Source: an uncultured delta proteobacterium (GTDB lineage Bacteria; Desulfobacterota; Binatia; UBA9968). From it: a DNA stretch of 64,000 bases. Below, in pieces: positions 29,808 to 54,546 of this stretch (its first letter is position 1; every line of letters begins with the position of its first letter). The position numbers were made by a program, and so were the translations under genes. A model generated the notes under the pieces. It made no database searches. It had not been told where the DNA came from and saw only the letters and a program-made list of their open reading frames with translations. The stretch lies in the NCBI GenBank assembly GCA_963745835.1, contig CAVUZH010000016.1:480001-544000 (forward strand), written 5' to 3'.

Positions 29808-30078
29808 ATGGCCGATCTCACAGAGGAGCAGCGAAAGTCGTATTGGCGTTACAACATCAAACTCACCACCATTCTCCTGGTCATTTGGTTCGTCGTGACC
29901 TACCTTATCTCCGGACTCTGGGCGGGTTGGCTCAATCAGTTCTCGTTTCCTAGGATTCCCACTCGGCTACTACATGGCGGCGCAGGGATCGCTGGCGATC
30001 TTCGTCATCGAGATCGCGGTGTATGCCTATCTGATGAACAAGCTCGACAAAGAGTACGGCATTGTGGAGGGAGATTGA
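29808..30078 (+). CDS. DUF4212 small membrane partner of solute symporter (frameshift near 29950)
   Basis: GGAGG RBS; YWRYNIKLT..LVIWFVV + PLGYYMAAQGS..MNKLDKEYG. Confidence 0.85.
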
Positions 30079-30080
30079 CC

Positions 30081-35730: not shown

Positions 35731-35865
35731 ACAGGCTGCTCAAAAAGACTCAAATGCAAGGCGCGCGATCTGAATTATGAAGAATGACATCTGAAAACAA
35801 ACTCCGGCAGAAGTCTTGTTTAATTTTTCCGCTTTCATCCTTCCGTTGTCGCTTGAGCAGCCTGT
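35731..35865. mobile_element. MITE-like element
   Basis: Perfect 13-bp terminal inverted repeats ACAGGCTGCTCAA / TTGAGCAGCCTGT; left end CAGGCTGCTCAAAAAG...AGGCGCGCGA shared with 53721. Confidence 0.7.
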
Positions 35866-37068: not shown

Positions 37069-37146
37069 CGGCAGAGTCGACCCACTTTCATTATTCGAAG
37101 CGTAATGCCTGTGCTCAGTCCCAGGTTTCAACCGGAAGGAGTTAAG

Positions 37147-38127
37147 ATGAAGCTCTCTTCGATTCTGGTTTCAGCGTTGACGCTCGTGTCGATGCTGATC
37201 AGCAGCCCACAAGCAGCGGAGAAGCTCGTCGCCGACTATGGCGGACTCTCCGGCTTTCAAAGCACTGTGTGGGTGGCAAAGGATCTAAAGATATTCGATA
37301 AGCACGGCCTGGATGTCGATGTAATCATGATCAACGGCAGTGCTCGTTCAGTGGCCGCCCTGCTGGGCGGCAGCACCCAGTTTGCCACAGGCTCGGCAAC
37401 CGGTCCGATCGTAGCCGCAGCTCGCGGCGCCGACCTAAAAGTCATCGCCGCTTCGTACAACAAATTTCCTTACGCCTTTATCGTAAAGCCCGAGATTCGC
37501 ACACCCAAGGATTTGCGCGGCAAGAAAGTTAACATTCTCAACTTTGGCGGTTCCAATGATCTTGCCCTTCAGCTGGCGTTGAAGGAATGGGGTTTGAAGC
37601 TGCCGGATATTCAAGTCATGATCGGCGGCGATGCGCCTACCCGTCTCGCATCGCTGATGACGGGCCGAACTGACGCCACGATACTTTCACCGCCGCATCT
37701 GACGAAGGCGGTTCAGGCGGGCTATCGGGTATTAGCCGATATGGGCGAGATGAGCGCTAACTTCACGCAGTCCTCTCTCTACATCAAAGGCAGTTTTCTT
37801 CGGGAAGACCGCGATCGGGTGAAGCGTTTCGTGCGGGCCTACTCGGAAGCCGTCCACGCGATGAAGAATGACCGGGAGAGAACCTTGAAGGTGTTTGCCA
37901 AACGCATGCGCATTGATGATGCGGAAACGCTTCACTCCACCTATAATTATTTCGCGCCGCGTTTTTCACTGCCGCCGCGGGTCGACTTATCCGGTGTGCG
38001 GGATACGATCAGATTCTATGCCGAACATAATCCAGAACTAAAGAACCGCACTGCGGAGGAGTTCATCGATCATTCGCTGCTCGATGAGATTGAAAAAGAG
38101 GGATTCTTCAAGAAGCTGGGCGGCTAG
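37147..38127 (+). CDS. ABC substrate-binding protein, NMT1/THI5/TauA-like
   Basis: Signal peptide; WVAKD..KHGLDV, ALLGG, DLRGKK, FGGSND, FIDHSLLDE. Confidence 0.9.
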   Translation: MKLSSILVSALTLVSMLISSPQAAEKLVADYGGLSGFQSTVWVAKDLKIFDKHGLDVDVIMINGSARSVAALLGGSTQFATGSATGPIVAAARGADLKVIAASYNKFPYAFIVKPEIRTPKDLRGKKVNILNFGGSNDLALQLALKEWGLKLPDIQVMIGGDAPTRLASLMTGRTDATILSPPHLTKAVQAGYRVLADMGEMSANFTQSSLYIKGSFLREDRDRVKRFVRAYSEAVHAMKNDRERTLKVFAKRMRIDDAETLHSTYNYFAPRFSLPPRVDLSGVRDTIRFYAEHNPELKNRTAEEFIDHSLLDEIEKEGFFKKLGG

Positions 38128-38190
38128 CGCGCATTACTCACACAACAAAGAAACCCAAGAACGCTTTAGGACAAACTGTCCGCGCACGCA

Positions 38191-38359
38191 GAGCGGTGAG
38201 GCTGGAGAGGCAAAGGCACGCGAACGTAAAAGTGCAAAGACCTCTTGGACGCTTGGCCGAAACTTTCAAAGCCTTTTCCTGCGGTCGCTCCTTTACTGGC
38301 AAGTCACGGGCCTCCTCAAGGCACAGACCATTGCCGTAGCCTTGGAAGCCTCGCCGCTC
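38191..38359 (+). repeat. Structured ~170-nt intergenic element, copy A (candidate ncRNA or MITE)
   Basis: Ends pair: GAGCGGTGAGGCT / AGCCTCGCCGCTC, then AGGC/GCCT and GGCA/TGCC; homologous to 53487-53659 (minus strand), including an exact 15-mer GGTGAGGCTGGAGAG. Confidence 0.7.
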
Positions 38360-38395
38360 GGCAACATATGCACCGCCTTCATAAAGACTGATCCG

Positions 38396-39370
38396 TCAGC
38401 GAATCTTTAATTCCGCTTGTGCTTTTTTTGCAAAGCTCCAGTCGACGACGTCGGACAAACCCAAATCATCCTTGGACTTTCGCGTGTCGCGCACCAGTTG
38501 AATAACGTTCTTCATTGTCTCATCCGAGGCGACGCCGTTTCGAGTGTAGATCCCGACGATATCGCGGTAAATGCCCTCGCGCACGTCGGCCTCTTTGATA
38601 CCCCATTTGCTTGCCATAATTGAAAGGATCTCGGCTTGGTTGTTTCGAATATAATTAACCCCTTTTAGCATGGCCTTGATCATCCTGACGATTTCATCGG
38701 GTTTTTCTTTCATTCTTTGGGTGTGAACGGTCAGGCCACCCAGCGGGATGCTCATAATCTCATTAAAAGAAAGAATCTCGTTGAATCCTCTTTTCGCGGC
38801 CAGCTTGTTGAAAGGCGGCACCAGCATCGCGGCGTCGATGGAACCGCTGTCCAATGCCGCATAACGGGAAGAACTGCCGCCGATCTGGAGAAACGTAACA
38901 TCCTTTTCCGGATTCATGCCGTACTTCCGGAGAATCATGACTGCTTCGCTGTGCGGAGTGCCGCCAAAACTGCTGATACCGAATTTTTTGCCCTTGAGAT
39001 CTTCAACCCTTTTGATGTTCGGGCTCGTCACCAGGTAATGGTCCGAGCCATCCATCACCGCCATCACGATGCGCACGGGAAGGCCCGAAAGAGCCGCTCC
39101 AACGAAATTCGAGAAGGTCCCGCCATAATCGACCTGGCGAGCGACAACGCCATTGACCACGACTTGGTTCTGCATCACAACCGAAACCGCGTTCAGGCCT
39201 TCGCTTTTGAAGAATCCTTTCTCTTCCGCAATTACGAACGGTAGGCCAGTGCTGCCGGTCTTGGTCGTGATCCCGAGACTGATACGATCCTGCGCTCTTG
39301 TTTCCTGCGCGGCCGCGAGCAGCAAGGTTAATGCAAGAAAGATCGCAAATCGACTTCTGTTCATTGCCAC
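38396..39370 (-). CDS. ABC substrate-binding protein, NMT1/THI5/TauA-like
   Basis: GGAGG RBS, signal peptide; EKGFFKSEGL, DLKGKKFGISSFG, MNPEKDV, VDWSF. Confidence 0.9.
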   Translation of the reverse strand: MAMNRSRFAIFLALTLLLAAAQETRAQDRISLGITTKTGSTGLPFVIAEEKGFFKSEGLNAVSVVMQNQVVVNGVVARQVDYGGTFSNFVGAALSGLPVRIVMAVMDGSDHYLVTSPNIKRVEDLKGKKFGISSFGGTPHSEAVMILRKYGMNPEKDVTFLQIGGSSSRYAALDSGSIDAAMLVPPFNKLAAKRGFNEILSFNEIMSIPLGGLTVHTQRMKEKPDEIVRMIKAMLKGVNYIRNNQAEILSIMASKWGIKEADVREGIYRDIVGIYTRNGVASDETMKNVIQLVRDTRKSKDDLGLSDVVDWSFAKKAQAELKIR

Positions 39371-39449
39371 CTCCGAAAGGATCTCGAGGTTATCTCTTCG
39401 GCGCAGCCACCCGCCTGCGGTTACGCCTGCCGTTCATCGTTGCGGTTCA

Positions 39450-39478
39450 CGCTTAAATGAGCGCTGGCATCCTGTCAA
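39450..39478 (-). promoter_or_regulatory. Putative sigma70 promoter
   Basis: TTGACA-N17-TAAGCG upstream of the 39370 start. Confidence 0.45.
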
Positions 39479-39831
39479 GACCGGCCGCCAGCAGGACTGC
39501 CGTAAGTTTAACGAGCTTTGCGAGAACCCTTACGCGGAGCTTTTAGGACTTTACAGTCGGAATCTCTCGCTGGTGTGCCTCTGTCGTTTCTCACGAGCCA
39601 ATGGCAACCAGCGCTGTTGATAGAGGCCTGTGAATGAACCGAATAACTGCACTTAGAGAGCAATGTCTTGTCCTCCTTACTGGTGTAAGTAGCATAATCA
39701 CAACAGATGCGGCGGCTGATGGACCGGAGGCGTCGGCGTGGGCGATTATATGTCCTGTATGTCTTCTCATATCCGCGTCGCATTCCTTCCACACGCAAAT
39801 ATCTGATCAAAAGTGTTGCAGGAGGGTAGTC

Positions 39832-39865
39832 TTGACAGTCATTTCATTTCGTTTATTCTAGAAAT
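39832..39865 (+). promoter_or_regulatory. ars promoter with overlapping ArsR operator
   Basis: TTGACA-N16-TATTCT ending 6 nt before the ATG; inverted repeat ATTTC-N10-GAAAT covers the -10 box. Confidence 0.7.
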
Positions 39866-40252
39866 ATGGAAATAAGGGAAGCGGTGCCAGCACTGGCCGC
39901 ACTCGCGCAGGAAACGCGGCTGGGAATTTTTCGTCTGCTCATCGAGGCAGGGCCCGAGGGCCTTTCGGTTGGACGGATCGGCGAGAAGCTTAAAGTGCCA
40001 GGAGCGACGCTCTCGTTTCATCTCAAGGAGTTGGCGCGCGCCGGCCTCATCACCGCGCGTCACGAAAAACAGTTCTTTTATTACGCTGTCGATTTTGTGC
40101 GCATGGCGGCGCTGATGACTTTTCTCACACAGAACTGCTGCCAGGGAATGCCGGAGGATTGTTTAAGTGGCGTCGAGAGTGCCCTCAGCCGATGCTGCGC
40201 GCCATCTTCAACCAGAACAAAGAAACCCAAAAGAAAAAGGAGTTGTTCATGA
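39866..40252 (+). CDS. arsR: ArsR/SmtB regulator with C-terminal CC-x6-C As(III) site
   Basis: LAALAQETRL.IFRLL, TLSFHLKEL, FLTQNCCQG...C. Confidence 0.92.
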   Translation: MEIREAVPALAALAQETRLGIFRLLIEAGPEGLSVGRIGEKLKVPGATLSFHLKELARAGLITARHEKQFFYYAVDFVRMAALMTFLTQNCCQGMPEDCLSGVESALSRCCAPSSTRTKKPKRKRSCS

Positions 40253-40707
40253 AAAGATTTCACGTGCATGTCTCGGTCGACAATCTTGCGGCCAGCGTTC
40301 GATTTTATTCGACTGTTTTTGGAACGTCGCCGACGGTTCTTAAAGACGATTACGCCAAATGGATGGTCGACGACCCGCGCGTCAACTTCGCGATATCGCG
40401 GCGCGGAACAAAATCCGGGCTGGATCATCTCGGCTTGCAAGTCGAGTCGGACGCAGAGCTGACTGAACTCCGTGAGCAAGTGGCGGCAGCGGAGCTAGCC
40501 GCGCTCGACCAGCCCAACGCAGAGTGCTGCTATGTGCGTTCCGACAAATACTGGACCACCGATCCGCAGGGCATTGCATGGGAAACTTTCCACACACTCG
40601 AATCAATCCCGGTGTATAGCGAGAGCGACCCGGTGGCGCCGAAAGCATGCTGCGCGCCCGCGTCGAAGGATTCAAACCTCGCCAAGGCCGAAACCTGTTG
40701 CGGGTAA
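40249..40707 (+). CDS. arsI: ArsI/CadI VOC-fold protein (C-As lyase-like)
   Basis: MKRFHVH, DYAKW..DDPRVNFAIS, LDHLG, CCYVRSDKYW..DPQG..WETF; ATGA overlap with arsR. Confidence 0.88.
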   Translation: MKRFHVHVSVDNLAASVRFYSTVFGTSPTVLKDDYAKWMVDDPRVNFAISRRGTKSGLDHLGLQVESDAELTELREQVAAAELAALDQPNAECCYVRSDKYWTTDPQGIAWETFHTLESIPVYSESDPVAPKACCAPASKDSNLAKAETCCG

Positions 40708-40716
40708 GGAGGGTTT

Positions 40717-41214
40717 ATGGCGGACGAACTGTTTAACGTTCTGTTCTTATGCTCGGGCAATTCATCGCGGAGCATCATGGCAGAAGGAATCCTCAACAGC
40801 ATCGGAAGGGGAAAGTTCCACGCGTTCAGCGCGGGAAGTCATCCGACCGGGCGCATTAATCCATTTGCGTTGGAACTGCTGGAAAAGAACCGCATTCCTA
40901 CCCAGGGCTTCCATAGCAAGGACTGGGGCCAGTTTTCACAACCAGGTGCCCCACCGATGCACTTTGTATTCACCGTTTGCGATCAAACGGCTGGTGAAAC
41001 CTGTCCTGTGTGGCCAGGGCAGCCGATGACTGCGCATTGGGGTATTTCCGATCCAGCCGCGGTCGACGGAACAGAGGACGAGAGGCGGAAAGCGTTCCTC
41101 AAAGCCTACACGGAACTTTATAAACGTATATCGCTGTTTACTTGTTTGCCATTCAAAACTTTGAGTAATCTCGCTCTCAAGCAAAAACTCGATGAAATTG
41201 GCCGTACCCAATGA
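40717..41214 (+). CDS. arsC: Arsenate reductase, LMW-PTP type
   Basis: FLCSGNSSRS, SAGS, TVCD..GETCPVWPG, HWGISDPA. Confidence 0.92.
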   Translation: MADELFNVLFLCSGNSSRSIMAEGILNSIGRGKFHAFSAGSHPTGRINPFALELLEKNRIPTQGFHSKDWGQFSQPGAPPMHFVFTVCDQTAGETCPVWPGQPMTAHWGISDPAAVDGTEDERRKAFLKAYTELYKRISLFTCLPFKTLSNLALKQKLDEIGRTQ

Positions 41215-41885
41215 CGCTCGGCAGAAAGGCCGCCGCCGAGGCGATCGGGACGGCGTTGCTGCTAGCCATCGTTGTGGGGTCGGGCATTATGGGTGAGCGC
41301 CTGGCTCAAGGGAATCTGGCCGTGGCTCTTTTGGCCAATTCTATTGCCACCGGGGCGGGACTCTATGGGCTGATCGTTATCTTCGCACCTATATCCGGTG
41401 CTCACTTCAATCCAGTGGTCTCTGCTGTGAGCGCGTGGAGAGGACAACTATACGCGTCCGATTGCGGTGTCTATGTAATGGCACAAGTGTCTGGAGCTTT
41501 CGCCGGAGTCGGCGCAGCGCACGCAATGTTCGGATTACCGATTTTACAGATTTCCGCCCATGCCCGGCCCACGCTCGGAGAGGGCTTGGGTGAAATCGTC
41601 GCGACCTTCGGCTTGATTCTGGTGATTTCGCTTGCAGGAAAATTCCGCGCCGAAGCGATTCCCATCGCAGTCGCCGCCTTCATTACCAGCGCATACTGGT
41701 TTACCTCTTCTACTTCCTTTGCCAATCCTGCTGTCACGTTCGCGCGGGCTATGACGGATACTTTCTCCGGAATATCTCCGCAAAGTGTGCCGCTGTTCGT
41801 CTGCGGCCAGCTGGTTGGTGGAGCGATCGCAATGATATTTGCGAGCTGGCTGCTCAGACGGGAGAAAGCAGCACCGGCCGGCTAG
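41211..41885 (+). CDS. MIP/aquaporin family arsenite channel (AqpS-like)
   Basis: VGSGIMGE, ISGAHFNPVV, AYWFTSSTSFANPAVT; within the ars operon. Confidence 0.9.
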   Translation: MTLGRKAAAEAIGTALLLAIVVGSGIMGERLAQGNLAVALLANSIATGAGLYGLIVIFAPISGAHFNPVVSAVSAWRGQLYASDCGVYVMAQVSGAFAGVGAAHAMFGLPILQISAHARPTLGEGLGEIVATFGLILVISLAGKFRAEAIPIAVAAFITSAYWFTSSTSFANPAVTFARAMTDTFSGISPQSVPLFVCGQLVGGAIAMIFASWLLRREKAAPAG

Positions 41886-41914
41886 TCACCGGCATCTTCT
41901 CCCATAACACCTTC

Positions 41915-44761
41915 CCACTACGTCGACGGCGCGTTGGTTCATGCTCTGCGCGTGCCTTTCGGCTATTGGGAAGCCAAGGACGAGAAGGACGATCTCGACG
42001 ACGAGATCGAGATCAAGAAACGCCGCGGCTATCCGCAAGACAACATCATCTTCGAGGATTCAAACCGAGCGGTTTTAGTACAGGAGAAGCGAGGAGGTTT
42101 ACCGCTGCCCGGTCGATGACGTCAGAGCGCCTGGAAAAACTACTCGACCTCTTCTTTGACTAAGAGCGGACGGAGATCGCCGAGTTTCGCAAGGCCGTCG
42201 AGCAGTTCAAAACCGACCTGCCGATGGTGCTTGAAGCTCTACGCTCGATGATCGAGCCGCCCACAAACGCGAACCGCGATTTCAGGAAAGCCGCCGAGGA
42301 ATTTCTCAAGCACGCCCAGGAGGCGATCAATCCTAGCCTAACCGAAGCCGACGTGCGCGAGATGCTGATCCAGCATATCTTAACCGAGGATGTTTTCGCC
42401 GCCGTGTTTCCCGGTACGCCGACTTTCATCAGGACAACAACGTCGCCGCGAGCTTTACAAACTGGAAGCGACTTTCTTCAAGGGCGATACAAAGTACCAG
42501 ACGCTAAAGGCGCATGGCGCCATACTACGCGGCGGTCCGTTCCGCCGCCGCGCAGATCGCCACGCATCACGAGAAGCAGACGTTTCTAAAAGTCATCTAC
42601 GAAAACTTCTACAAGGTATACAGTGCCAAAGCGCGGCAAGCGGATCAGCCCACCACAAGCCGAACAGAAAGTTCGCTCCATGATGAGAGGCCGACTACTT
42701 TGGAAAAGCACGGGTGAATCCTGAAGGTCACAGACGTAGAGTTTCTGGACCCAGCCGCCGGCACCGGAACATTCGTGTGCGAAATGCTCGAACACTTCCG
42801 CGGCCAGCCTGCGAAGCTAAAGCACAAGTATTTAGGAAGAACTCCACGCCAACGAAGTTGCGATCCTGCCCTATTACGTCGCTAACCTGAACATCGAAGC
42901 GACGTACGCGGCGATCACGGGCGAGTATCTGGAATACCCCAATTTTTGCTTCGGCTCGTAACGCACGACAACACCTACGCGCTGCGCAAATACCGCGGCC
43001 ACATGGACGACCTCTTCGGTTCCCTCAGCGATGACAACGTCCGGCGCATTCGCCGCCAGAACAGCCGCAAGATCAGCGTGATCATCGGCAACCCGCCTTA
43101 CAATGCGTGGCAAGAAAACTTTAACTTTCGCAATCCGAATCGCCCATACAAAGAGATCGACAAGCGCATCAAGGAAACTTATGTCGAAAGTGGAACTGCT
43201 CAAAATCAGATCGCACTTTACGACATGTATGTGCGATTCTTTCGGTGGGCGAGCGATCGCCTAGGTGAGAATGGTATCGTCGCCTTCGTCACCAATCGAA
43301 GTTTCTTGGATAGCCATACCTTCGATGGGTTTCGAAAGATTATCGCAGGCAATTTTGCTGAAACACGGGTTATCGATCTTGGCGGTGACATCCGGGAAAA
43401 TCCAAAACTTTCCGGAACTAAGCATAATTTTTTCGGCATACAGACCGGTGTGTCATTAGTTTCTTCAGAAAGCGTGCAAAGTCAAACTGTCATATCACCA
43501 CGGCGCTGGCGACGAATCGAGGGAGATGAGAAACTCGCGGTGGTTTCTTGAAGGTTACTGGAAAATAACTCGAGTAGAGTTGATACCGACTGAAGAAGCA
43601 ACTGGATCGAGCAAGGCGATAGCGAGTTTGATAGTTTGCTGCCATTCGTTTGATCAAGATTCAAAGGAATTCAGAAATCAGACCGATCCAAAACTGATCT
43701 TTTGGATGTTTTCTTCCGGCTCTTACCAGTCAACGCGATGAATGGGTTTATGGCCTTTCTCAGCCAAACACTGGAAAGTAAGATGCGCTTCTTTGTGGAT
43801 GCTTATGAGACCGCCAGGACGCGGATCCGGTTCCGAACGGGCACCACAGAATCAAGTGGGATCCTGATTTGGAGCGTCATCGTAGATCGAGGAATTAAGA
43901 AGATGTAACACCGCTAGTACGAAGAATCGTAATTCACGACAAGATTGTGGCGCCTTTTTCTTTCGATCGCCGTTTTATTGGCAGGCAATACCAAATGCCC
44001 GCTCTTTTTCTTGACGGCGCTGCGGAAAATACTGTGATGGTTTTGAGTGATAGAGGCGCTAGATCAGGATTTAACGTCCTAGCGACTCGCTACATTCCTG
44101 AAGCACATCTATGTGCGAGTACAGATAGATTTCAGGTAGTATCTAAGTTGATCTATGAGGGTACGCCCCCGCAACCACGAAGAAAACATCAGCGACTGGG
44201 CATACAACAAGTTCTCGCACACAGTATCAGATCGCGAAGAGGAAAGGGGCGCGCTCACTAAAGCGCTCTCTTCATACTTTAATCCTGCCATTCTGTCTAC
44301 GCAAAAAAGCGCTCATATCAATATCGGAATTTCCGCGTATTCCGTTTTACAAAGACTTCTGGCAGTGGGCGGAGTGGGGCAAGGAGTTAATGGAATTGCA
44401 CATCGGCTACGAATCGGTGACGCCAGCTAAGCTGAAGCGGATCGACATGCAAGACGAGAAGGCACTCAAAGCCGGACTCCCGCAATGCAAGTAAAGCCAA
44501 AGAAGGCTGTCGGATCATCGTCGACAGCGAAACGACCTAACCGGTATCCGGCCGAAGCCGGGAATACAGAGGCAACCACTTCCCGCTCCAATATTCTCAC
44601 AGACAAAGAAAAGAAACCAAAGCCCCAACCGCCGCGAGAAGTTTAACAGGTACCGATTCGCCGATTACAAGGAAAAGGTAATCGATTTACTGAGGCGGGT
44701 GACGACGGTGAGTGTGCGGACGGTTGCAGTGGTTGAAGCGATGAGAAAAGCCGCTCGGTAA
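41915..44761 (+). pseudogene. Type ISP-related / IIG restriction-modification enzyme (nuclease-N6-MTase-TRD), decayed
   Basis: YVDG..GYWEAKD (PD-ExK), DPAAGTGTF (motif I), IIGNPPY (motif IV), DMYVRFFRWASDR, C-terminal RFADYKEKVIDLL; no 5' end, in-frame TAA at 42161, many frameshifts and deletions. Confidence 0.85.
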
Positions 44762-44838
44762 AAGAACCCACACCAAACTATCGGAGCCATTTGCGGCCAC
44801 GGCCTGGCGAGACTTTTTAAGCATAGATTCCCAACACG

Positions 44839-45480
44839 ATGGATTCTGCTCAACTCGTTCTCCTGTCATTTGCAATCGCGCTCGTTGCCTTTCTTTACTC
44901 CTCGGTAGGCCACGCGGGCGCATCGGGTTATATTGCCACGATGACGCTGGTTCGTTTAGCAGTCCTGTTAATGAAGCCAGCATTAGATCAATCAATTCTG
45001 CAGAACTTATAGTCTGGTTACGGGACGGGCTGGAGTATGTCGGCGTTGGCGGCCTCCATATTTGCTGCTAAGTCTTCTACGATCTGCGCGCGCATCTAAC
45101 TTTGGGAGGGCTTTTGCCTTCGTCCATCATTTTCATCACGTACACGCGTGAGGTCACACCGCCGGCATTGCCGACGCCCTGAGCGTCGGAGCGGGGATTG
45201 GGTTGCTATCGGGCCTGACCGGCACTGGCGGCGGCATTTTTCTAACTCCTTTGTTGCTGTTCTGCCGCTGGGCACATACACGCCCCGCTGCTGCCATTTC
45301 CGCGCTGTTCATTCTCGCTAATTCGATTGCGGGTCTAGTCGGCTATGCTTCCAGTGGTCAGCCGATTCCGCCGTTTGCGTGGACATTGGCGGTCTCGGCA
45401 GTTGCAGATGCCTCAAGCAAGGTCTCATTCGATGAAGCACCGGTTTCATCGGCATCGTATCCGTGCTGCTCGCCATATTG
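44839..45480 (+). pseudogene. TauE/SafE (TSUP) permease, interrupted
   Basis: VAFLYSSVGHAGASGYIA, then about 230 nt without recognisable TSUP sequence, then GLLSGLTGTGGGIFLTPLL..ANSIAGL. Confidence 0.8.
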
Positions 45481-45656
45481 TCCATTGAAATATCAAGACT
45501 GATTGCTGAGTATGGCCCTCGGAGCCGCCGCCGCAATAACAGGTTAGAAGATTATACTTGAGGGTATCGCGATTGACGATTGCGAGAAAGACCCCAAAAA
45601 TTCACAGAAATGAGTAGGCGACGCACTGAGTTGGGCTAACAGCCCACGGCATTGCG

Positions 45657-46203
45657 TCATGGTTGCCCAGCTGCCAACGATCGCTCGCGACGGGCCGCAA
45701 TATACACCTCTCGCGCCGCGTCCAGGTTCATGAGGAAAATCCCCAGTCCGACAAGAAGGTCGGGCCAGGCCGATAGGCTAACTATCGTTACTAGGCCGGC
45801 TCCAATGATGCCGATATTCGCGAGCGCATCGTTGCGAGCGGAAAGAAATGCAGCTCTCGTCAAGCTGCCGCTGTGGGTACGAAAACGAGCGAGAAGGCCG
45901 GCGCAGAACAGGTTTACCGATACGCTTCCAGCGAACCTCGGGTCGGAGCCGTTGGAAGCGGCGCAAAATACTTTCCGAAGCTAACTTGTAGCTAAACCCG
46001 GAGCGAGCAAAATAGCCGCGAGCGCCATACCGACCAATGAACGTCGATGAGGATTCCAGTTCAGAGCGATGAGAATGAGACCGTTGACCGCCGCATCCTC
46101 GAGGAAGTCTATGGAGTCGGCGAAGAGTGAGACGGAGCCAATCGCCAGAGCCACCCCGATACTCACGCCGCTTCAAATAGCCTTGGTTCAGCGTAATTGC
46201 CAT
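45657..46203 (-). pseudogene. Short CDF-like cation efflux protein, frameshifted
   Basis: AIGSVSLFADSIDFLEDA.VN and SLTRAAFLSARNDALAN..WPDLLVG in different frames. Confidence 0.75.
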
Positions 46204-46302
46204 GATACCCGCAGGCTAACAGCGTCGTGAGACAATAGCGGTATTTTCATTCAACACTCTCCATTAATACTTTCAGTTGGCTTGCGAAGGCCGGGGTTTT
46301 AG

Positions 46303-46638
46303 TTATCTTGGCCAATACATCATGATGCCGACGCCGAGTAAGCTCACCGTGCCGCCGATCAAATCCAAGTGGTCGGGCTTATTTCCATCCAAGACCCAAC
46401 CCCACAGGAGAGACAACACAATGAAAAAGCCACCGTATGCGGCATAAACGCGGCCGAAGTGGGCTGCTTGGAAAGTCGGAACTACACCGTAAAGAACCAA
46501 GAGCACTGCCCCAAATAAACCCCAGCTCCAAGGCCGAGACTCTTTCAGCCACTGCCAGACCATCCATCCTCCCGCAATCTCGCATAAGCCAGCCAAGATG
46601 AATAAGCCCAGGGAAAAACCTATCGCAGATGCCAACAT
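46303..46638 (-). CDS. ynfA: YnfA (UPF0060) SMR-like membrane protein
   Basis: LAGLCEIAGG, FGRVYAAYGGFFI..W..DG.KPD; GGAGGGG RBS. Confidence 0.92.
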   Translation of the reverse strand: MLASAIGFSLGLFILAGLCEIAGGWMVWQWLKESRPWSWGLFGAVLLVLYGVVPTFQAAHFGRVYAAYGGFFIVLSLLWGWVLDGNKPDHLDLIGGTVSLLGVGIMMYWPR

Positions 46639-46670
46639 TTGACCCCTCCGTGAGTTGCAATGCGAGCGGA

Positions 46671-46916
46671 TCAAGTACGTTCCCGTCGGGCAGTTAGTTC
46701 CTCAAGCCGCTTGCGATCGAAGCCAATGACAACCTCGCGGTCGATGACAATCACCGGCGTCGTCATGGTACCTAGCCGTTCAAGCTCATCAACTGCCGCC
46801 GGATCTTTTGTTATGTCCTTCTCTTCGAAAGCAACACCCCGTTGCGAAAGGAACTCCTTCGCCCTGTTACAGAAGAGTCAGCCCGGCTGGCTATAGACCA
46901 TCACTCTTTTAGCCAT
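46671..46916 (-). CDS. Selenocysteine-containing glutaredoxin/NrdH-redoxin (UxxC), 81 aa; not in the ORF track
   Basis: AAGGAG RBS; MAKRVMVYSQPG-TGA-LFCNRAKEFLSQRGVAFEEKDI...TTPVIVID..VIGFD; the in-frame TGA (46878-46880) sits at the first Cys of CxxC. Confidence 0.88.
46844..46862 (-). promoter_or_regulatory. Putative bacterial SECIS hairpin
   Basis: GCGAAGG-AGUU-CC(U)UUCGC stem-loop; apical loop 22 nt after the UGA, with GU in the loop. Confidence 0.6.
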
Positions 46917-47025
46917 TGCAGTACTCCTTGCTAGAAGCGTCGATAGGTTAAGAAACCATTGTTAGTGAGTCTATTGATATACGGAAAAAGGTCATCTCAC
47001 GACCAGATTAAGAACCTACGCCTGC

Positions 47026-47655
47026 TTACAGCGCGGCTGGTTCGGCCTCAATCAAATGAAATACTCCGAAGAAGTTTCGCCGCGCACTAACTACTTTCAA
47101 GCCCGCCTGTGCAGCGAGCTCAAGTGGTTCGCGGTTCCAGTGACAGCCAGCCGGCTTGGCAAATTTATCTGCATGCCGATCCTGCCAACGTCCAAGCCGT
47201 TCACGGTCGCTGCGGCCATGCTCCAGTAAAAGGATCTTCCCATCCGTTCGACAAACGCGCGCCATTTCCCGAAAGGCATTCGCCGGATTCGGAAACGTGC
47301 AGGCGCTAAGCGAGGAAACAATGGTATCAAAGCAGTGATCGCGAAACGGCAGATATTCCGCGTCCGCTAGAGAGAAGGAAACATCCATGGATAATTTTGC
47401 GGCTCGTGTTCGGGCGACGTTTAACATCTCGCTGCTAATATCCATGGCGGTAATTTGGCAACCACGAGGGTAGTCGGGAAAGTTCTTCCCGGTACCTACG
47501 GCAACTTCTAGCACTCTTCCCGACGCACGCTCCAGCAAGCTGCGGCGAAGGCTCCTCACTCCCAGCAGGTCTGGAATGCCTTCAACCCAGTCGTACCAAC
47601 GAGCGAAATGATCGTATTTCTCAGATATCTCTCGTGATGCAAATTCTACAGCCAT
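47026..47655 (-). CDS. Class I SAM-dependent methyltransferase (UbiE/PmtA-like)
   Basis: VLEVAVGTG, DISSEML, DAEYLPF..FDTIV, LLLEHGRS, GCHWNR. Confidence 0.9.
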   Translation of the reverse strand: MAVEFASREISEKYDHFARWYDWVEGIPDLLGVRSLRRSLLERASGRVLEVAVGTGKNFPDYPRGCQITAMDISSEMLNVARTRAAKLSMDVSFSLADAEYLPFRDHCFDTIVSSLSACTFPNPANAFREMARVCRTDGKILLLEHGRSDRERLGRWQDRHADKFAKPAGCHWNREPLELAAQAGLKVVSARRNFFGVFHLIEAEPAAL

Positions 47656-47692
47656 CTAAGATGCTGCATGATTTTTAATGTTCGGGCGCCGG

Positions 47693-47941
47693 TTACTTCT
47701 TGTCGGTCATCATCCGCATCATGAGATACATGCCGAGCGGACAAGCCAACAGCGCGACAATGCTGAGCCAACCGCTTCCCACAGCATCGTATGAACCAAA
47801 AGTGAAACCAAGAAAAGGGATAGCAGACAAGACAAGGAGCGGAGCGGCGCAGCATATGGCCATCATGAGCATCCCTTTGAGCGTCGTTTTCTTTTGCGCT
47901 GGAGCTGTGTCAGGCGCCTCAACTGTCACCCTCTTATACAA
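47693..47941 (-). CDS. Small Cys/Met-rich membrane protein (DUF2933/MerF-like)
   Basis: MLMMAICCAAPLL..LLACPLGMYLMMRMM; start uncertain. Confidence 0.7.
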   Translation of the reverse strand: MYKRVTVEAPDTAPAQKKTTLKGMLMMAICCAAPLLVLSAIPFLGFTFGSYDAVGSGWLSIVALLACPLGMYLMMRMMTDKK

Positions 47942-48001
47942 ACCTATTCGGGCTGCTGGTCGCAGACGCTGCTACGTGAGATATATTTCAGGCGATATAA
48001 C

Positions 48002-50243
48002 CTAAGCAATTCGCGTATCCCACAGAACCGGCTCGCCACCCAAACTCGGGCTATACAAATCCACCTGCAGCTGCGTGGCGCAACCCGGGCATGCGTAGAT
48101 GTGGTATTCGCCGATGTAACGCTCCCCCGTCGGCAGCGGCGGCATGGAGTCGTTGAGATCCAAAATGCGATGGAGCGCGTAATGTTTGTAGTTTTCATCG
48201 GCCTTGCAGTAGAGATGACCGCAGCGGCTGCATCGAATGGCTTTTTTCTTGCCGTTGCCGATAATCTCCAAAGCCGCATGAAAGCGCAGCAGTTGTCGTG
48301 AGTCACTACTAACGGCAGCGGCTTGATCGCTGGAGTTCTGCGAGATGGGCGCGCCTTGCGTTGCGTGCTTCGCGAATTCGGCGGCGGCAATCTTCGCTGG
48401 CGGCGCTGTCGACAGCCTTGCCGTTGTCGGCGAAGACAACGCCGTAAATTCTTTCCGCAATCTCCCGGCTCACCCAGCCGTAGCCGAAGTCTTTCAAGAC
48501 GGCGCCTGGATCCCGATCAATGGGATCGCCAAATCCACCACCCCCGGCGACATAGTCGACCAACAAAGTGCCTTCCGGCAACGGCACTCGCTCGGGCACG
48601 CCCGCCGGTAAGATTGATTTGCCCCACTTCCCCGCGCGCATCGCGCCCACCGTGGGATATTCGCCTGCTTTGACCCGGCCGAGCATTTCGAGACCGGCTT
48701 CGATCATCACCCGGGTTGCGCCGATGCCGGTAGGATAACCGCCGGCAAGACCAAAGCCACCCTGAGCGACGCCGCCATAGGGTTTGTAATCGACGCTGCA
48801 ATCTTTCGAACCATAGATCAGATAGATGCGATAGCTGCCGAGGCCGCCGCGGTACTGCCCAAAGCCGCTGCCGTCCGGGTTGTGCGAGCGGGTGAAATAA
48901 AGAAACGGATACTGCATTTCGATGCGCTCGATGTCCGATATGCCGGCCGATGGAATATTCATATGCCCGCCGGTATTGACACCGTCACCATGCGGCCTGG
49001 CGCCCATTCCCGCTCCATGAATGTCGTAGAGTCCTTGAGCAACGGCGATGCCTTCGCGCGTGTGGCCGCCGTAGAAGTATCCAGGGCCGCCGACAAATTC
49101 CAAATTTCCCGTGGTCGATGCGTTGACGTCGTCGTAGCGGCCGGAAGCGTAGATCATTTTTGCTACCGCCTCGCATACCGTCGACACGAGCACGTTGCCG
49201 ATGCGCGGGCCGGCGCCGCAGGCCGCAGGATATTTGCAATTGAGAATGGATCCTTCCGGCACATGGACCTTGACCGGACGCATCTTGCCATCGCTCCAGG
49301 GCACGTCCCAGAAAAGAGTATTGGTCAGCGCCAGCGCCAGATGAGCCACCGTGCTGGGCAAGGTCGAATTGTGGTCGGTATCGGTCTGCGGGCTCGTGCC
49401 GGTGAAGTCAAAAAGCAACTCGTCGCGCTTCTTGGTCATCGTGCAGTAGAGTTGTTGCGCCACCGATTTGCGCGTCTTGCGATCCAAGGTAGTGACGTAT
49501 TGCCGGGTCACCCAGGTGCCGTCGGGCATCGATCTAAGTTTTGCGCGCGCCTTGCTCTCGGAATCGGCAATCATTTTTTCGCCGGCCAACTGCACGAACT
49601 TGAGCCCGAATTTTTCCACCAAGCCCAGATATCGTTTGGCGCAGATATTATTCCCCGCGATCATCGCCTTGAGATCCAGGCCTACGTACTGGGGATCACG
49701 GCACTGCCCCGTCAGAGTTTGAAACACATCCTCGCGGAATTCATTCTTCTCGACGATTTTCAATCCCGGTATGCAAATACCCTCGTGGAAGATCTCGTAG
49801 GCGCCGCCGCGGAGTACGCCGCCCGTGTCGGCGGTGTGCGTGCTGGTCGCCGTCCAGCCGATCAACTCGCCGCGGAAGAAAATCGGTTTGACAATCATCA
49901 TGTCGTAAGTGTGCGAGCCGGCGACATACGGATCGTTGAAAAAAAACTGGTCGCCATCGTGAAAGCCAGGAGTTTTGCTGAAGCGCTGCATCAGATTGCG
50001 GATAGCATCCGAAGTGGCGGCGGCAAAGCGCAGGTGACCCGAGCAGGCAAGAACCATCGTGCCGGTCTCGTCATAGAAGGAGCTCATGCACTCGCCTCCT
50101 TGAGAGACAATCGGCGAGGCGGTCACTCGTTGCAGGGTCATGCGTCCTTCTTCACCGATGGCCCAGAGGCGATGGAGAAACATTTCATAGCGAATCGGAT
50201 CGATGGTCTGTCTTTGTTTTCTCATTTTGGCTCCTGAGTTCAT
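48002..50243 (-). CDS. Hydantoinase B/oxoprolinase subunit with probable fused acetone-carboxylase gamma-like domain (frameshift near 48360)
   Basis: NDPYVAGSHTYD, HTADTGG, EIFHEG, GQYRGG, GGGGFGDP.DRD; downstream frame carries CSRCGH...ENYK...CPGCATQLQVD. Confidence 0.85.
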
Positions 50244-51253
50244 TTCTTCGGAATGTCAGCGCTGGTTTTGACCAATTCGTCGAGGAGGGAATTATCGACA
50301 AAATCTTTGGGGTGAGCTTGCTTAGCTTTTGGTTCTTTTTCCGCCAGAAAGTCCAGTGTCGATTGAATGCCTTCCAGTGTCGGATACGGCGGCGCCCTGA
50401 ACAGAGGCGCCGCGGCGTTATAGCTGTACTCCAACACGTCGCTGTCGGTGGTCCGCATATGTTTCGAGATTGTTTTCATGGTGAAAGCCTTGTCGGCTTT
50501 GATGCGTTCGATAGCGACGACGTAGGCTCGCAATACCTTAACCAGAGTGGCACGGTTCCGTTCGATATATCTGCGCGTGGTCGCGAGTGTGGTGTGTTGA
50601 AACGAAATTCCGGCCTGTGGCAGGTATGATAATTCTTTAAACCCCGCCTTGATCGCCACCATGTTGGTCGGTGGCGAAAGAATACCCGCATCAATGGCTT
50701 TTGCCTGGAGCGCTCCCAGAATTTCTGGCACACCGCGCATCTGTAGTAAATTGATTTCGGTGTCGGCCTTGAGTCCCCACTTCTTGAGCGCTAGCCGCAG
50801 GGCTAGGTCGGTAGCCGAGCCGAAAGTGGTGATGCCGATGCGCTTGCCGCGAAGATCTTCCATTTTGTTGATACTAGCAGTGCTAACGATGGAGAAAACC
50901 GGTTGGTTCACTAGCCCGGCGATGATAACAGCATCCGCGCCGGTAAAGCGCGCCGAGAGTACCGGTGCGCTATAGACCTGAACGATGTGCACGTCACCGC
51001 CGATCAGGGCGGAAAAAGTCTGCGGCCCGCCGCGAATGTAAATCTGCTCAACGGGCACGCCCTCGCGCGTAAAATAACCGCCGTCCTGGGCCACCCAGGT
51101 GGGCAATGTCGCGATGCTTGCCGCGCCCACCGCGATGCGTAGCGGCTCGGCGACTGAGGCCGAGCAGAGCACCATCATAAAGGCGCAGGTATGGACAAAA
51201 ACGCAGAGCGCTCGCTGCATCATCTGACGGTCCTCCTTTTGCCCTTGCTCCAT
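50240..51253 (-). CDS. ABC substrate-binding protein, NMT1/THI5/TauA-like
   Basis: WVAQD.GYF.REG, DLRGKRIGITTFGSATD, PYPTLEGIQ, FVDNSLLDEL. Confidence 0.9.
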   Translation of the reverse strand: MEQGQKEDRQMMQRALCVFVHTCAFMMVLCSASVAEPLRIAVGAASIATLPTWVAQDGGYFTREGVPVEQIYIRGGPQTFSALIGGDVHIVQVYSAPVLSARFTGADAVIIAGLVNQPVFSIVSTASINKMEDLRGKRIGITTFGSATDLALRLALKKWGLKADTEINLLQMRGVPEILGALQAKAIDAGILSPPTNMVAIKAGFKELSYLPQAGISFQHTTLATTRRYIERNRATLVKVLRAYVVAIERIKADKAFTMKTISKHMRTTDSDVLEYSYNAAAPLFRAPPYPTLEGIQSTLDFLAEKEPKAKQAHPKDFVDNSLLDELVKTSADIPKK

Positions 51254-51272
51254 CGTTCAACTGCTCGGCGTC

Positions 51273-53385
51273 TCAGGGCACTTCCATTACCAGATTCAAA
51301 TACGGGTCAATGCTCACCCTGTGCTCCGGTGGCACCAAGGCAGTAGTAAACGGCAGCTCGATGACGGCGGGGCCGCGCACGATGGCACCAACGCCAAGTC
51401 GCTCGTAATCGTAAACTGGAGTATCGATGAATTTACGTTCGGGTCGGGTAAAAAATATTTCGCGTTTGCCTTTGCGCGCCGAGCGGGTGTCGCGGTTGCT
51501 CTTCCGCTTTGCCGTCAGCTTCGGCTTGGCCACCTTGCCCACTGCATCGACGCGGATTTCACTGATTTCGATGCCCGCCTTGGCATAACCCGAACCGACG
51601 CCGTACAGCTCTTCATATTTTTTCTCAAACGCGCTCTGCATTTCGGTCATGCGCTTAGGATTGAACCGATCCCAAGCTGACCGGCATTTCAACCCCGGCA
51701 CTTTGCCGGCGATAGCGAATCGTGAAGAAACGGCGGAATTCCACCCGGCCCGGCTTGAACCCTTCACGGTTCATGTCGGCGCTCATCTCTTTTTCGATGC
51801 CGTCAAGTCGCTGGTTTATGACGACCGGATCCGCCGGTAAAATATACTGGCAGCTCATCACGCGCGTGCGGATGACATCGGCAGCGGCTGCCCCGAAAGC
51901 GGAAAAAACCGGCGAAGTGGCGAAAATATAGATGTGCTTGATCCCCAACTCAGCGGCGAACCCTGAAGCGTGCACCGCTCCCGCGCCGCCAAATGCGTAT
52001 ATGACGAATTCTTCCGGAAGATAACCGGTGCGAACCACTTGCCGGCGAATCAGATCGGACATTTTGGCATTGACGATATCGTGAACTCCGGCAGCGGCTT
52101 CATGAACTTTTAATTTTAGAGGTTGCGCAATCTTCTCCTCGATAAGCTTAAGCGCCTTGTCCTTATTCAAAGACTTTCTACCGCCGAGAAAATAATTGGG
52201 ATCGATGATGCCGAGAGCTAGATCGGCGTCGGTAACCGTCACTTGATCGCCGCCGGCGTCGTAACAAACCGGTCCGGGACTGGCGCCGGCGCTGCGCGGG
52301 CCGACCAGCAAGCGGCCGGTTTCGATTTCTACCTGGGCGATGGTGCCGCCGCCTGCGCCGATCGATTCGATATCGATGATCGGCTGCAACATGCGAAATC
52401 GTTCGACGATCGGTTCTTGCGCATAGCGCCAATAGCCTTCGGTGATAAGGCCGACATCGAAGCTGGTTCCGCCCATGTCAGTGGTAATGACATTCTCGTG
52501 TTCGAGGAGACTGGCAATGTAAGCCGAAGCAATCATGCCACCGGCCGGACCCGATTGGAGGTTGGCAATCGCACTGACGTGCTCGCGATGCGCCACGCCG
52601 CCGTTACCTTGCATGATCAGCAGCGGTCCTTTGAGACCGCCGCTGGCAAGTTTGTCCTCCAAGCCTTTCAAGTAGCGCTCCACCGTGGGTCCGAGATAGC
52701 TATTCAAAATCGCCGTATTGGCGCGCGCATACTCGCCGGCTACTTGGGACAACGAACTACCGAAAGACCAATAAACTTTTCGGTGCGGGTCCGCTTCGGC
52801 CGTCAAAGCGCGAATTTCGTTCTCGTGTTGCGGATTTACCCATGCATGCATGAGACTGACGGCAATGGCGTCGACCTTATCGTCTTCGATAAGCCGGCGA
52901 ATCGCCTCCATGACATCATCCCAATTGAGCGTAACGATTTCGTTGCCCTGGTAGTCGATGCGCTCGCGCACACCGATGACCCGTTCCCTGGGCACGAACG
53001 GTTCTGGTTTGGTGATCCAGGTGACGTGTTTGATCTCGTCATCCGACAAACCGTCAACCCGGCCGATCGCGCGCATGATCTCGGTGGTATCTTCGAACCC
53101 CCGAGTCGTAATCAGACCCACCTTGACGCCGCTGCGCGTGATCAACGCGTTGGTTGCGACCGTGCTGCCGTGCTTAAACAGTGTCGTGCGACCGAGAAGA
53201 TCCGAACTCTCAACTCCCATGATCTGCGCGGCTTCGCCGACCGCATCCATCACCCCACGGGAAAAATCGTCCGGCGTGGTCGAAGCCTTTGCTGTCCAAA
53301 CTTCGCCCGTGTCCGCCAAGACGACAACATCGGTAAACGTGCCGCCGGTATCGACGCCGATAATGTAGTTTCTCTTTGCCGCCAT
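51273..53385 (-). CDS. Hydantoinase A/oxoprolinase ATP-binding subunit (frameshift near 51680)
   Basis: GVDTGGTFTD, HGSTVATN, SGPAGG, DMGGTSFD, IGAGGG, SAGASPGP, FGGAG; C-terminal GPAVIE. Confidence 0.92.
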
Positions 53386-53414
53386 GAAATTCCTTCCGAA
53401 GTGAATTGCTTGCA

Positions 53415-53443
53415 GAAATATGAGCCCAAGCCTGGCTTGTCAA
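53415..53443 (-). promoter_or_regulatory. Putative sigma70 promoter of the hydantoinase operon
   Basis: TTGACA-N17-TATTTC. Confidence 0.55.
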
Positions 53444-53486
53444 GTGTGAGTGAACCCAGAATTGCGCAGTTCGAAGAGACACGGCA

Positions 53487-53659
53487 ATTGAGCGGCGAGC
53501 CCTCCGGAGCAAAGGCAATGGGCCTCTGGTTGATAGCGGTCCGCAAGCTCCAGTCTTTAGCGGACGCCTGAAAAAATGTGTCAGCCCAGGACCAAGCACC
53601 ATACACGGCATTGAAATTGTTCGCTTCTGTGTCTTCGCTCTCCAGCCTCACCTCTCAAT
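53487..53659 (-). repeat. Structured ~170-nt intergenic element, copy B
   Basis: Ends pair ATTGAGAGGTGAG / CTCGCCGCTCAAT; internal GTCCGC/GCGGAC hairpin; homologous to 38191-38359. Confidence 0.7.
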
Positions 53660-53720
53660 CGATACGAAGTTGCCCATCTACTACGGAATCCGGGTTGAAT
53701 GAAGCGCGCAGCTAATAGGC

Positions 53721-53845
53721 GCAGGCTGCTCAAAAAGTCGCAGGCGAGGCGCGCGAAAAATCGACGAGCGCAGGCGTAGTTATGCGCTACGTTGGAGCGA
53801 GTCGATCGAGCGCAACAAAGCATGTGAGGTTTTTCAGCAGCCTGC
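53721..53845. mobile_element. MITE-like element
   Basis: TIRs GCAGGCTGCTCAAAAA / TTTTTCAGCAGCCTGC (1 mismatch); nested TCGAC..CGTAG/CTACG..GTCGA palindrome; abuts the livF TAG. Confidence 0.75.
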
Positions 53846-54546
53846 TAGCCGCCGAGATACGCCTGTCGCACCAGATCATTACCGGCCAAATCGCTGGACG
53901 CGCCGCTAAGAATCACTTGGCCGGTCTCGAGCACGTAACCGCGATGCGAGATCGCCAGGGCCATCGCGGCATTTTGCTCGACCAGCAGAACCGTGACACC
54001 GGATTGGTTGATCGCGCGAATGTTCTCCAAAATCTGCTCGACGATTTTTGGCGCCAGCCCCATCGATGGCTCATCCAGCAGCAATAATTTCGGCTTGGCC
54101 ATCAAGGCTCGGCCGATCGCCAGCATCTGCTGCTCGCCTCCAGACAGGGTGCCTGCATATTGCTTCTGCCGTTCGTGCAAGCGTGGAAACATGCGATAAA
54201 CAAAGTCGAGATCAGGCGCAAGCGACTTGATGCTGCGGCTGTACCCGCCGACCTGCAAATTCTCAAGCACCGTGAAACGAGGAAAAACTTTCCGGCCTTC
54301 CGGCACATGAGCTACCCCGCGCCGGACGATCTCGTGGGCGTCGATTTCATCTAGAGCGCAGCCTTCCAGTTCGATGTTACCGCGGCGTGGACGCAGCAGT
54401 CCGGAAATTGTTTTCAGGGTAGTCGTCTTGCCAGCGCCATTGCCGCCCAGAAGGGTGACGAGTTCGCCGGGCTCGACGGAAAACGTAACTCCCTTCAGCG
54501 CGTGAATGGCGTCGTAATAAACGTGGATCTCGTTAACTCTGAGCAT
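53845..54546 (-). CDS. livF: Branched-chain amino acid ABC ATPase
   Basis: GGNGAGKTT, HVPEGR, AGTLSGGEQQMLA, LDEPSMGLAP, VEQN. Confidence 0.95.
   Translation of the reverse strand: MLRVNEIHVYYDAIHALKGVTFSVEPGELVTLLGGNGAGKTTTLKTISGLLRPRRGNIELEGCALDEIDAHEIVRRGVAHVPEGRKVFPRFTVLENLQVGGYSRSIKSLAPDLDFVYRMFPRLHERQKQYAGTLSGGEQQMLAIGRALMAKPKLLLLDEPSMGLAPKIVEQILENIRAINQSGVTVLLVEQNAAMALAISHRGYVLETGQVILSGASSDLAGNDLVRQAYLGG

Follow-up and report, generated by a model that had tools for sequence, protein, structure and literature searches.

A candidate MITE-like mobile element of approximately 168 bp in two diverged intergenic copies

Two intergenic spacers in the 64-kb stretch of DNA that was analysed (the window) each carry one copy of a short repeat, designated family 1. 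Copy 1 sits 3' of an NMT1-type binding-protein gene, in the spacer that separates it from a convergent gene of the same type; copy 2 occupies the 459-nt spacer that leads from an ABC ATPase gene to a hydantoinase A gene. The same two regions also hold an unrelated second repeat family whose ends are likewise inverted repeats. The genes and repeats at the two loci are as follows:

35732-35864, + strand: second repeat family, copy A, with inverted-repeat ends CAGGCTGCTCAAAAAG...GAGCAGCCTG
37105-38127, + strand: NMT1-type binding-protein gene upstream of copy 1
38191-38359, + strand: family-1 copy 1 (169 nt, GC 0.58, 189 bits with the covariance model)
38396-39370, - strand: NMT1-type binding-protein gene beyond copy 1
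51655-53385, - strand: hydantoinase A gene following copy 2
53490-53656, - strand: family-1 copy 2 (167 nt, GC 0.57, 179 bits with the covariance model)
53722-53844, + strand: second repeat family, copy B, separated from family-1 copy 2 by 65 nt and directly adjoining the ABC ATPase stop codon
53845-54564, - strand: ABC ATPase gene preceding copy 2

As described in the initial annotation, both copies occupy spacers and share the sense of an ABC-transport gene that lies upstream of them, with the caveat that copy 1 sits between convergent genes. No promoter-like sites were found at either copy in the promoter scan, and the terminator-like sites detected at the copies in the terminator scan were at or below the count expected from shuffles.

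The initial annotation had proposed two diverged copies 15 kb apart, and both sequences were present where it had placed them. For copy 2 the locus was correct, and the bounds of 53659 to 53487 were found to include an additional ATT and AAT, which can pair with each other in copy 2 only; the core shared with copy 1 runs from 53656 to 53490 on the minus strand. The first 19 nt of the copies were identical at 18 of 19 positions, reading GAG[C/A]GGTGAGGCTGGAGAG, and the last 16 nt, terminating in CTCGCCGCTC, were identical at 14 of 16. CCATTGCC and all of the colinear blocks named previously were also found in both copies. When copy 1 was aligned globally with copy 2, 115 of 174 columns were identical and the score was 44 (z 9.7), a value attained by none of 1000 dinucleotide shuffles (mean -15.4, sd 6.1, maximum 8). 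In a blastn comparison within the 12.2 kb of intergenic DNA, the copies matched over 172 columns with 64.5% identity (E 1e-9). The core alone was also homologous between the copies (z 4.7, with 0/1000 shuffles as high). The boundaries of homology were sharp at GAG...CTC in both copies and the flanks did not align. Identity was higher in the termini (31/35 columns) than in the core (84/139 columns; Fisher p 0.0013). These findings show that the two intergenic stretches of approximately 168 bases are genuine diverged copies of one repeat with inverted ends.

Each copy consists of an imperfect terminal inverted repeat of approximately 28 nt flanking a 113-nt core, and short direct repeats lie at the outer edges. 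The positions of the arms in copy 1 and of the putative target-site duplications are as follows:

38191-38218, + strand: copy 1, 5' terminal inverted-repeat arm (outer 13 nt near-perfect, then GGA in an internal loop, then an inner imperfect stretch)
38332-38359, + strand: copy 1, 3' terminal inverted-repeat arm
38188-38190, + strand: putative target-site duplication of copy 1, left, GCA (recognized post hoc)
38361-38363, + strand: putative target-site duplication of copy 1, right, GCA, one base (38360) past the ...CTC end
53657-53659, - strand: copy 2, left repeat of the putative target-site duplication (minus-strand ATT)
53486-53488, - strand: copy 2, right repeat of the putative target-site duplication (minus-strand ATT), one base (53489) past the ...CTC end

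The terminal stem with a GGA-opposite-GGA loop, as drawn previously, was present in both copies, with 39 of 44 cells paired compared to 32-48% when the partner was slid. As putative target-site duplications, 3-bp repeats (GCA and ATT) occur in the same register in both copies; they were recognized post hoc, and this register requires one extra base on the 3' side. Across the registers tried, the Monte Carlo probability of such repeats was 0.0058, a post hoc value from n=2. The core itself was not self-complementary (self-reverse-complement z -1.8 and -0.8). Two known classes of repeat did not fit. The attC sites have RYYYAAC...GTTRRRY core sites at their ends and an integron context; the ends found here read GAGCGGT... 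and ...GCCGCTC, and no integrase family was among the Pfam matches. REP/BIME sequences are palindromic units of approximately 20-40 nt, and the unit here measures approximately 168 nt, its 113-nt core not being palindromic.

It is extremely improbable that the repeats are what is left of a single protein-coding gene family, or that they represent a gene for a small protein. An open reading frame of 108 aa does run through copy 1 (38084-38410, + strand), and it has a 103-aa predicted protein, P0001, as its counterpart elsewhere. In contrast, a six-frame comparison found no open frame with similar residues common to the two copies, the best BLOSUM score being 45 and between different frames, and P0001 tracked the window DNA through four frame changes in a frameshift-aware mapping. 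Moreover, Pfam searches of 145 stop-to-stop ORFs from the spacers and of the spurious 108-aa ORF matched no family for the ORFs across either copy. Protein-database searches gave no match for the 80-aa ORF that crosses copy 2 (53581-53823), nor for the ORFs across the copies in the 'shorter' variant of the search. The 108-aa ORF served to find, through P0001, an orthologous locus that is occupied by the element; it is the one such locus and the sole outside relative seen. Two further proteins from an exhaustive protein search, P0002 and P0003, were rejected as chance matches. Both are long and internally repetitive, and their scores add up six near-identical stretches; P0002 matched neither P0001 nor the copy-2 ORF.

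Also unlikely is a structured RNA specific to the lineage that would work through the terminal stem with its conserved GGA/GGA loop, be it an sRNA or a cis-regulatory element in a 3'-UTR or between cistrons. Such a role would be consistent with the sense orientation of both copies downstream of ABC-transport genes, with the retention of the terminal stem and its two GGA triplets, with a T/G position kept in both copies that yields a sense-strand G-U pair, and with a copy 1 fold that was better than its shuffles (z -2.58). In contrast, copy 2 folded no better than its own shuffles (z -0.44 as RNA and -0.37 as DNA), and the earlier description of the element as 'rod-like' was not borne out by this fold or by the core, which has no self-complementarity. 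No terminal-stem pair showed changes on both sides (0/22), and 16 of the 22 were invariant. The adjacent helix had been said to stay paired despite sequence change; 6 of its 9 pairs were invariant, the other three differed via unpaired cells only, and in register no compensatory change was found at any pair of this helix. The pair that positions 18 and 152 form in copy 1 would be lost in the orthologue, where the codons predict a change to G at both.

The RNAalifold consensus of the interior was likewise no better than that of interior-column shuffles (-21.25 compared to a mean of -22.31, z +0.38), in a test whose power is low with two sequences. A total of 188 of 300 column shuffles were at least as low as this consensus, and at least eight 'compensatory' pairs appeared by chance in 24 of 300. 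That no known RNA family could be recognized was confirmed with Rfam, in which 0 of 4227 families reached the gathering score over the window; around each copy, at E values up to 10, the sole match was a snoRNA with 15 bits against a gathering score of 49 bits. Family 1 resembles Rfam structured RNA families in its similar length and long closing stem, but differs from them in having no family match and no covariation. The results of the promoter and terminator scans also count against a structured RNA. For the ncRNA reading offered by the initial annotation, the terminal inverted repeat was the sole positive support, and covariation, a consensus fold better than that of column shuffles, an Rfam match and a promoter signal were all lacking.

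Further copies were sought in the 64-kb window with nhmmer (--max) and with cmsearch with filters off, and none were found beyond the two; a third cmsearch match, with 24.5 bits, was copy 1 read on its opposite strand. No relative was found among the PLSDB plasmids in a distant blastn search with both copies as query, or among phage sequences searched with family 1. Genome contigs were scanned for loci with the exact 19-nt terminal pattern, and the window's own loci were absent from the matches. The 63 loci obtained were attributed to chance, as the alignment never reached past the pattern. The search of PLSDB for a parent IS with the arms alone returned 18 records per arm, all attributed to chance, with E of at least 0.1 and none at a transposase; the best of these matches, a Salinibacter locus, was without the 3' end and was rejected. 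Over these 64 sources (the 63 loci and the Salinibacter locus) the covariance model gave 23.9 bits at most, compared to 179-189 bits for the true copies. No transposase was found in the window by gene annotation and Pfam. The terminal sequence strings were found in the literature only in unrelated papers that carry them by chance, and the available text of PMC3196728 and PMC7371123 held no data on IS-family ends or duplications.

According to the available text of PMC10969869, prokaryotic MITEs are shorter than 500 bp in total, contain no transposase gene, and have terminal inverted repeats of approximately 4-30 bp. They are described there as intergenic, with multiple dispersed copies and flanking direct repeats from target duplication, and as typically, not obligatorily, AT-rich; they can be mobilised in trans by a related autonomous IS, and their transcripts form a thermodynamically stable stem-loop (PMC10969869). 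The family-1 copies are 169 and 167 nt long without a transposase gene, have terminal inverted repeats of approximately 28 nt, and are intergenic. Neither copy is AT-rich as is typical of MITEs (GC 0.58 and 0.57 compared to 0.547 window-wide), and two copies were seen in the 64-kb window, compared to the multiple dispersed copies per genome expected of a MITE.

The mobile-element reading in the initial annotation agrees with the discrete boundaries, the terminal inverted repeat, the conserved termini, the possible 3-bp duplication, the non-coding character and the presence of a second family. Several observations speak against a MITE-like element: there are two copies only in 64 kb, and the outside searches yielded no family member other than the P0001 locus; the window holds no transposase, and the searches revealed no IS that shares the family-1 ends; the direct repeats are offset by one base and were recognized post hoc; the copies are not AT-rich; and the sole orthologous locus seen is occupied. 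Taken together, family 1 is probably an old MITE-like non-autonomous transposon of approximately 168 bp and not a new structured RNA, and we regard it as a candidate mobile element. It most likely represents a new family of an ordinary kind, the MITE-like elements.

There is a low probability that family 1 is instead a dispersed intergenic DNA repeat that needs no transposase, such as a palindromic module bound by a protein or a sequence spread by recombination or gene conversion. The failure to find either a transposase or a clear canonical target duplication would fit such a repeat, as would the concentration of conservation at the two termini and the sharing of the same two regions by families 1 and 2. 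Against it, sharp termini at the inverted repeat together with 3-bp flanking repeats in both copies are traces expected of transposition, and we know of no non-transposed repeat class with a 113-nt homologous core, which also counts against this explanation.

If family 1 is MITE-like, a DDE-type transposase encoded elsewhere would have recognized the termini and inserted copies into the spacers, and a 3-bp staggered cut would have left the GCA and ATT repeats. Multiplication would have been limited to copies with intact ends, and the ends may have stayed alike while the cores drifted because only such copies could multiply. By now the copies are probably passengers that no longer move and are co-transcribed with the neighbouring transport genes, and in the RNA the arms could pair into an interrupted stem of approximately 22 bp.

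In the IS1031 group of the IS5 family, duplications are 3 bp and ends are GAG (ISfinder family table). Family 1, with its GAG...CTC ends and putative 3-bp duplication, is similar in these features, a likeness to generally known traits of the group that is a lead only; it differs in that no transposase or full-length IS with family-1 ends was found. The Correia and ERIC families occur in many copies per genome. As described in the available text of PMC10969869, the Correia elements of Neisseria and the ERIC elements of enterobacteria are short repeats bounded by inverted repeats and co-transcribed with their neighbours, with arms that pair in the mRNA; RNase III cuts Correia-containing transcripts at the terminal inverted repeats, and ERIC elements at the 3' ends of genes change mRNA decay. 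Family 1 resembles them in its inverted-repeat bounds and in the position of copy 1 at a 3' gene end and of copy 2 between two genes, here known from sequence alone, and differs in belonging to another lineage. By analogy with these elements, the arm stem could serve as an RNase target or as a 3' stabiliser. The closest layout is that of QMITE2 of Coxiella burnetii, whose terminal inverted repeats are 23-29 bp and whose core is 113-145 bp (PMC10969869, Figure 2 legend). Family 1 is likewise short, non-coding and intergenic, with a terminal inverted repeat of approximately 28 bp, a core of 113 bp and putative flanking direct repeats; the comparison is one of layout. In contrast to the 7-9 bp direct repeats given for QMITE2 (PMC10969869), those of family 1 are putative and 3 bp; two copies were seen here, and the element is not AT-rich.

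It is very unlikely that family 1 has been exapted as a transcribed element of ABC-transport operons, in which the terminal stem with its conserved, asymmetric GGA-opposite-GGA loop would be a protein-binding or RNase III site. Exaptation of the stem would account for the sense orientation of both copies and for the kept G-U position, and the putative site would then govern how stable the mRNA of the upstream transporter is, or would uncouple this mRNA from the genes downstream. Wider importance would follow only if a genome-wide orientation bias together with covariation indicated that the repeat had been co-opted as an RNA signal of transport operons. If family 1 is a MITE-like element, it adds one more lineage-specific MITE family and raises no new question; for annotation, it would account for two long spacers and the spurious 108-aa ORF, and it would be usable as a strain marker.

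Two diverged repeats of about 168 nt (family 1) were compared with each other and with their surroundings.

38191-38359, + strand: copy 1, intergenic
53656..53490, - strand: copy 2, intergenic
37105-38127, + strand: gene for an NMT1-type substrate-binding protein, on one side of copy 1
38396-39370, - strand: gene for an NMT1-type substrate-binding protein, on the other side of copy 1
53845-54564, - strand: ABC ATPase gene bordering the copy-2 spacer
51655-53385, - strand: hydantoinase A gene bordering the copy-2 spacer

Global alignment of copy 1 and copy 2 gave 115 identical columns of 174 and a score of 44 (z 9.7), compared to a mean of -15.4, a standard deviation of 6.1 and a maximum of 8 in 1000 dinucleotide shuffles. 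Within the window's 12.2 kb of intergenic DNA, the copies aligned end to end over 172 columns with 64.5% identity (E 1e-9), and the 113-nt core was homologous on its own (z 4.7; score reached by 0 of 1000 shuffles). The first 19 nt and last 16 nt were identical at 18 of 19 and 14 of 16 positions, respectively, and when 20-nt flanks were added the edges of similarity fell at GAG... and ...CTC. These findings clearly show that the homologous pair reported in the initial annotation is real and well above chance, and all of the shared colinear blocks listed there were found in both copies. Its span for copy 1 (+) was retained; that for copy 2 (-) was three bases too long at each end, and the additional ATT and AAT are paired in this copy alone.

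The two 28-nt ends formed an imperfect inverted repeat, the 5' end aligning with the reverse complement of the 3' end. The outer 13 nt were near-perfect; next to them lay a stretch in which GGA was read in the same direction on both arms, and an inner imperfect part followed. In a 22-pair model of this terminal stem 39 of 44 cells paired, compared to 32-48% when the partner was slid by 1-3 columns. No self-complementarity was found in the core (self-reverse-complement z -1.8 and -0.8 for the two copies), indicating that the element is a terminal inverted repeat (TIR) around a core and not the rod originally described. The termini were more conserved than the core (31/35 versus 84/139 identical columns, Fisher p 0.0013). 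A 3-bp direct repeat was present at both copies in one common register when the element is defined as GAG...CTC plus one base; the Monte Carlo P of 0.0058 over the 25 registers tried is post hoc and comes from two copies.

38188-38190 and 38361-38363: direct repeat GCA, copy 1
53659-53657 and 53488-53486: direct repeat ATT, copy 2

In section 2.1 of PMC10969869, prokaryotic MITEs (miniature transposons without a transposase gene) are defined as intergenic, under 500 bp and bearing TIRs of 4-30 bp; direct repeats flank younger copies, and an IS mobilises them in trans. In length, TIRs and intergenic position the layout of family 1 matches this definition, the 3-bp repeats at its flanks being putative target duplications, and it resembles the TIR-plus-core layout of QMITE2 in a figure legend of that article. 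On this MITE-like layout, the best reading of family 1, and a reasonably probable one, is the old non-autonomous mobile element that had been offered as one of two options. Its mobility is putative: two copies were found, and neither a parent IS nor an empty site; that family 1 is another kind of DNA repeat is considered unlikely. Transposase families were absent from the window (8 flanking proteins, 52 further ORFs and 145 stop-to-stop spacer ORFs).

No third copy was found in the window by nhmmer --max (two hits with E below 1e-45, next E 5.2) or by cmsearch without filters, which gave 189 and 179 bits for the copies, 24.5 bits for the reverse strand of copy 1 and 15.3 bits or less for the rest. 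PLSDB and phages held no copies of family 1. Scanning of genome contigs for the 19-nt terminal pattern yielded 63 loci from unrelated phyla, with one match each, where similarity never reached past the pattern. The window's own loci were not among the 63, so the scan covered other genomes only; a covariance model scored at most 23.9 bits on these and a Salinibacter locus (64 sources).

For the other option, a rod-like structured RNA, the fold z-scores of copy 1 were -2.58 as RNA and -2.99 as DNA in the sense orientation and -1.77 as RNA in antisense; the values for copy 2 were -0.44, -0.37 and +0.04, respectively. RNAalifold on the two copies proposed 33 pairs, eight of them with both sides changed. 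At least eight such pairs also appeared in 24 of 300 shuffles of interior alignment columns, and the consensus was not better than this null (-21.25 versus a mean of -22.31, with an equal or lower value in 188 of 300 shuffles). The 22 terminal-stem pairs comprised 16 that were invariant, one with a one-sided change and five differing only through unpaired cells; none was changed on both sides, and the claim of a helix that keeps its pairing despite a changed sequence came from a one-base offset between copies. Rfam gave no match at gathering score across the window; at E up to 10 there was no match near copy 1, and the sole match near copy 2, to a snoRNA, scored 15 bits where the threshold is 49 bits. 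Promoter-like sites were not found at either copy in the scan, and the single terminator-like site, located where the minus-strand gene stops, at its stop codon, was within expectation. The Rfam, covariation and consensus-fold tests thus left the structured-RNA proposal unsupported, and a functional structured RNA is improbable. According to section 4.1 of PMC10969869, RNase III cleaves Correia-containing transcripts at the TIRs, and decay of ERIC-containing 3' ends is altered; by analogy, an effect on transcript cleavage or decay would be the likeliest kind of side effect here.

An ORF of 108 aa without a Pfam family crosses copy 1 (38084-38410, + strand), and used as a query it retrieved a single predicted protein, P0001 (103 aa, E 8.5e-9). 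Residues 66-103 of P0001 were identical to the translation of 38385-38498, indicating a close relative's orthologous locus as the origin of P0001. In frameshift-aware mapping, P0001 tracked the window DNA while shifting frame four times, by one base each; three of these shifts lay within the element, as did five residue-changing substitutions. The ORF therefore does not represent a conserved protein. No open frame with similar residues was common to both copies, and two more protein searches with ORFs across the copies gave no match. A coding remnant is thus very improbable. The repeat probably gave rise to spurious gene calls in both the ORF and P0001, the latter being listed as a "hypothetical protein" in a public collection. 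In the relative, as read through P0001, the element occupies the same site and is about 3 nt shorter; judging from codons, positions 18 and 152, paired in copy 1, would both be G. The change rate did not differ between element and adjacent spacer (8 events/169 nt versus 4/36 nt, p 0.23).

An exhaustive protein search also returned two long repetitive proteins, P0002 and P0003, which were rejected as chance, their scores being the sum of six near-identical stretches; neither matched P0001 or the copy-2 ORF. The similarity of P0002 to the 108-aa ORF, confined to one frame, was judged to be chance. This protein (803 aa, from the protein library and outside the window) consists of tandem 67-aa units and evidently arose by translation of DNA of other origin in which about 201 nt are repeated in tandem.

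Copy 1 sits between the two convergent NMT1-type genes and copy 2 in a 459-nt spacer running from the ABC ATPase gene to the hydantoinase A gene. The flanking gene positions bear out the initial annotation in that each copy follows a transport gene in the sense orientation. Copy 1 just as much follows the minus-strand gene, in antisense. Apparently broken genes were seen at 828-2197, 6296-7001, 29802-32010, 42224-44491 and 45203-45502: NfeD, class II aldolase and SSF symporter were each split between two frames that overlap, at least four fragments of a type ISP restriction enzyme were seen, and a TauE fragment was also present. Genome decay and assembly indel errors are the two candidate causes, and such errors would be relevant to the one-base indels relative to P0001 too.

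A further repeat family, unrelated to family 1 but likewise with inverted ends (CAGGCTGCTCAAAAAG... / ...AGCAGCCTG), was found in the same spacers, so that two or more kinds of short inverted-end repeat are present there.

35732-35864, + strand: second family, copy A, 133 nt
53722-53844, + strand: second family, copy B, 123 nt

Each family occurs exactly once in the NMT1/ABC cluster (34.7-39.4 kb) and once in the 459-nt spacer (53386-53844), where the two stand 65 nt apart. Simple segmental duplication fails to explain this pairing because the relative orientation of the families differs between the two regions. A PLSDB search gave no match for the second family, and a clear target duplication was not seen. 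Its 5' 37 nt were 84% identical between copies (E 5e-5 among intergenic DNA), its RNA fold z ranged from -1.9 to -4.9, and copy B directly adjoins the ABC ATPase gene at its TAG stop codon.
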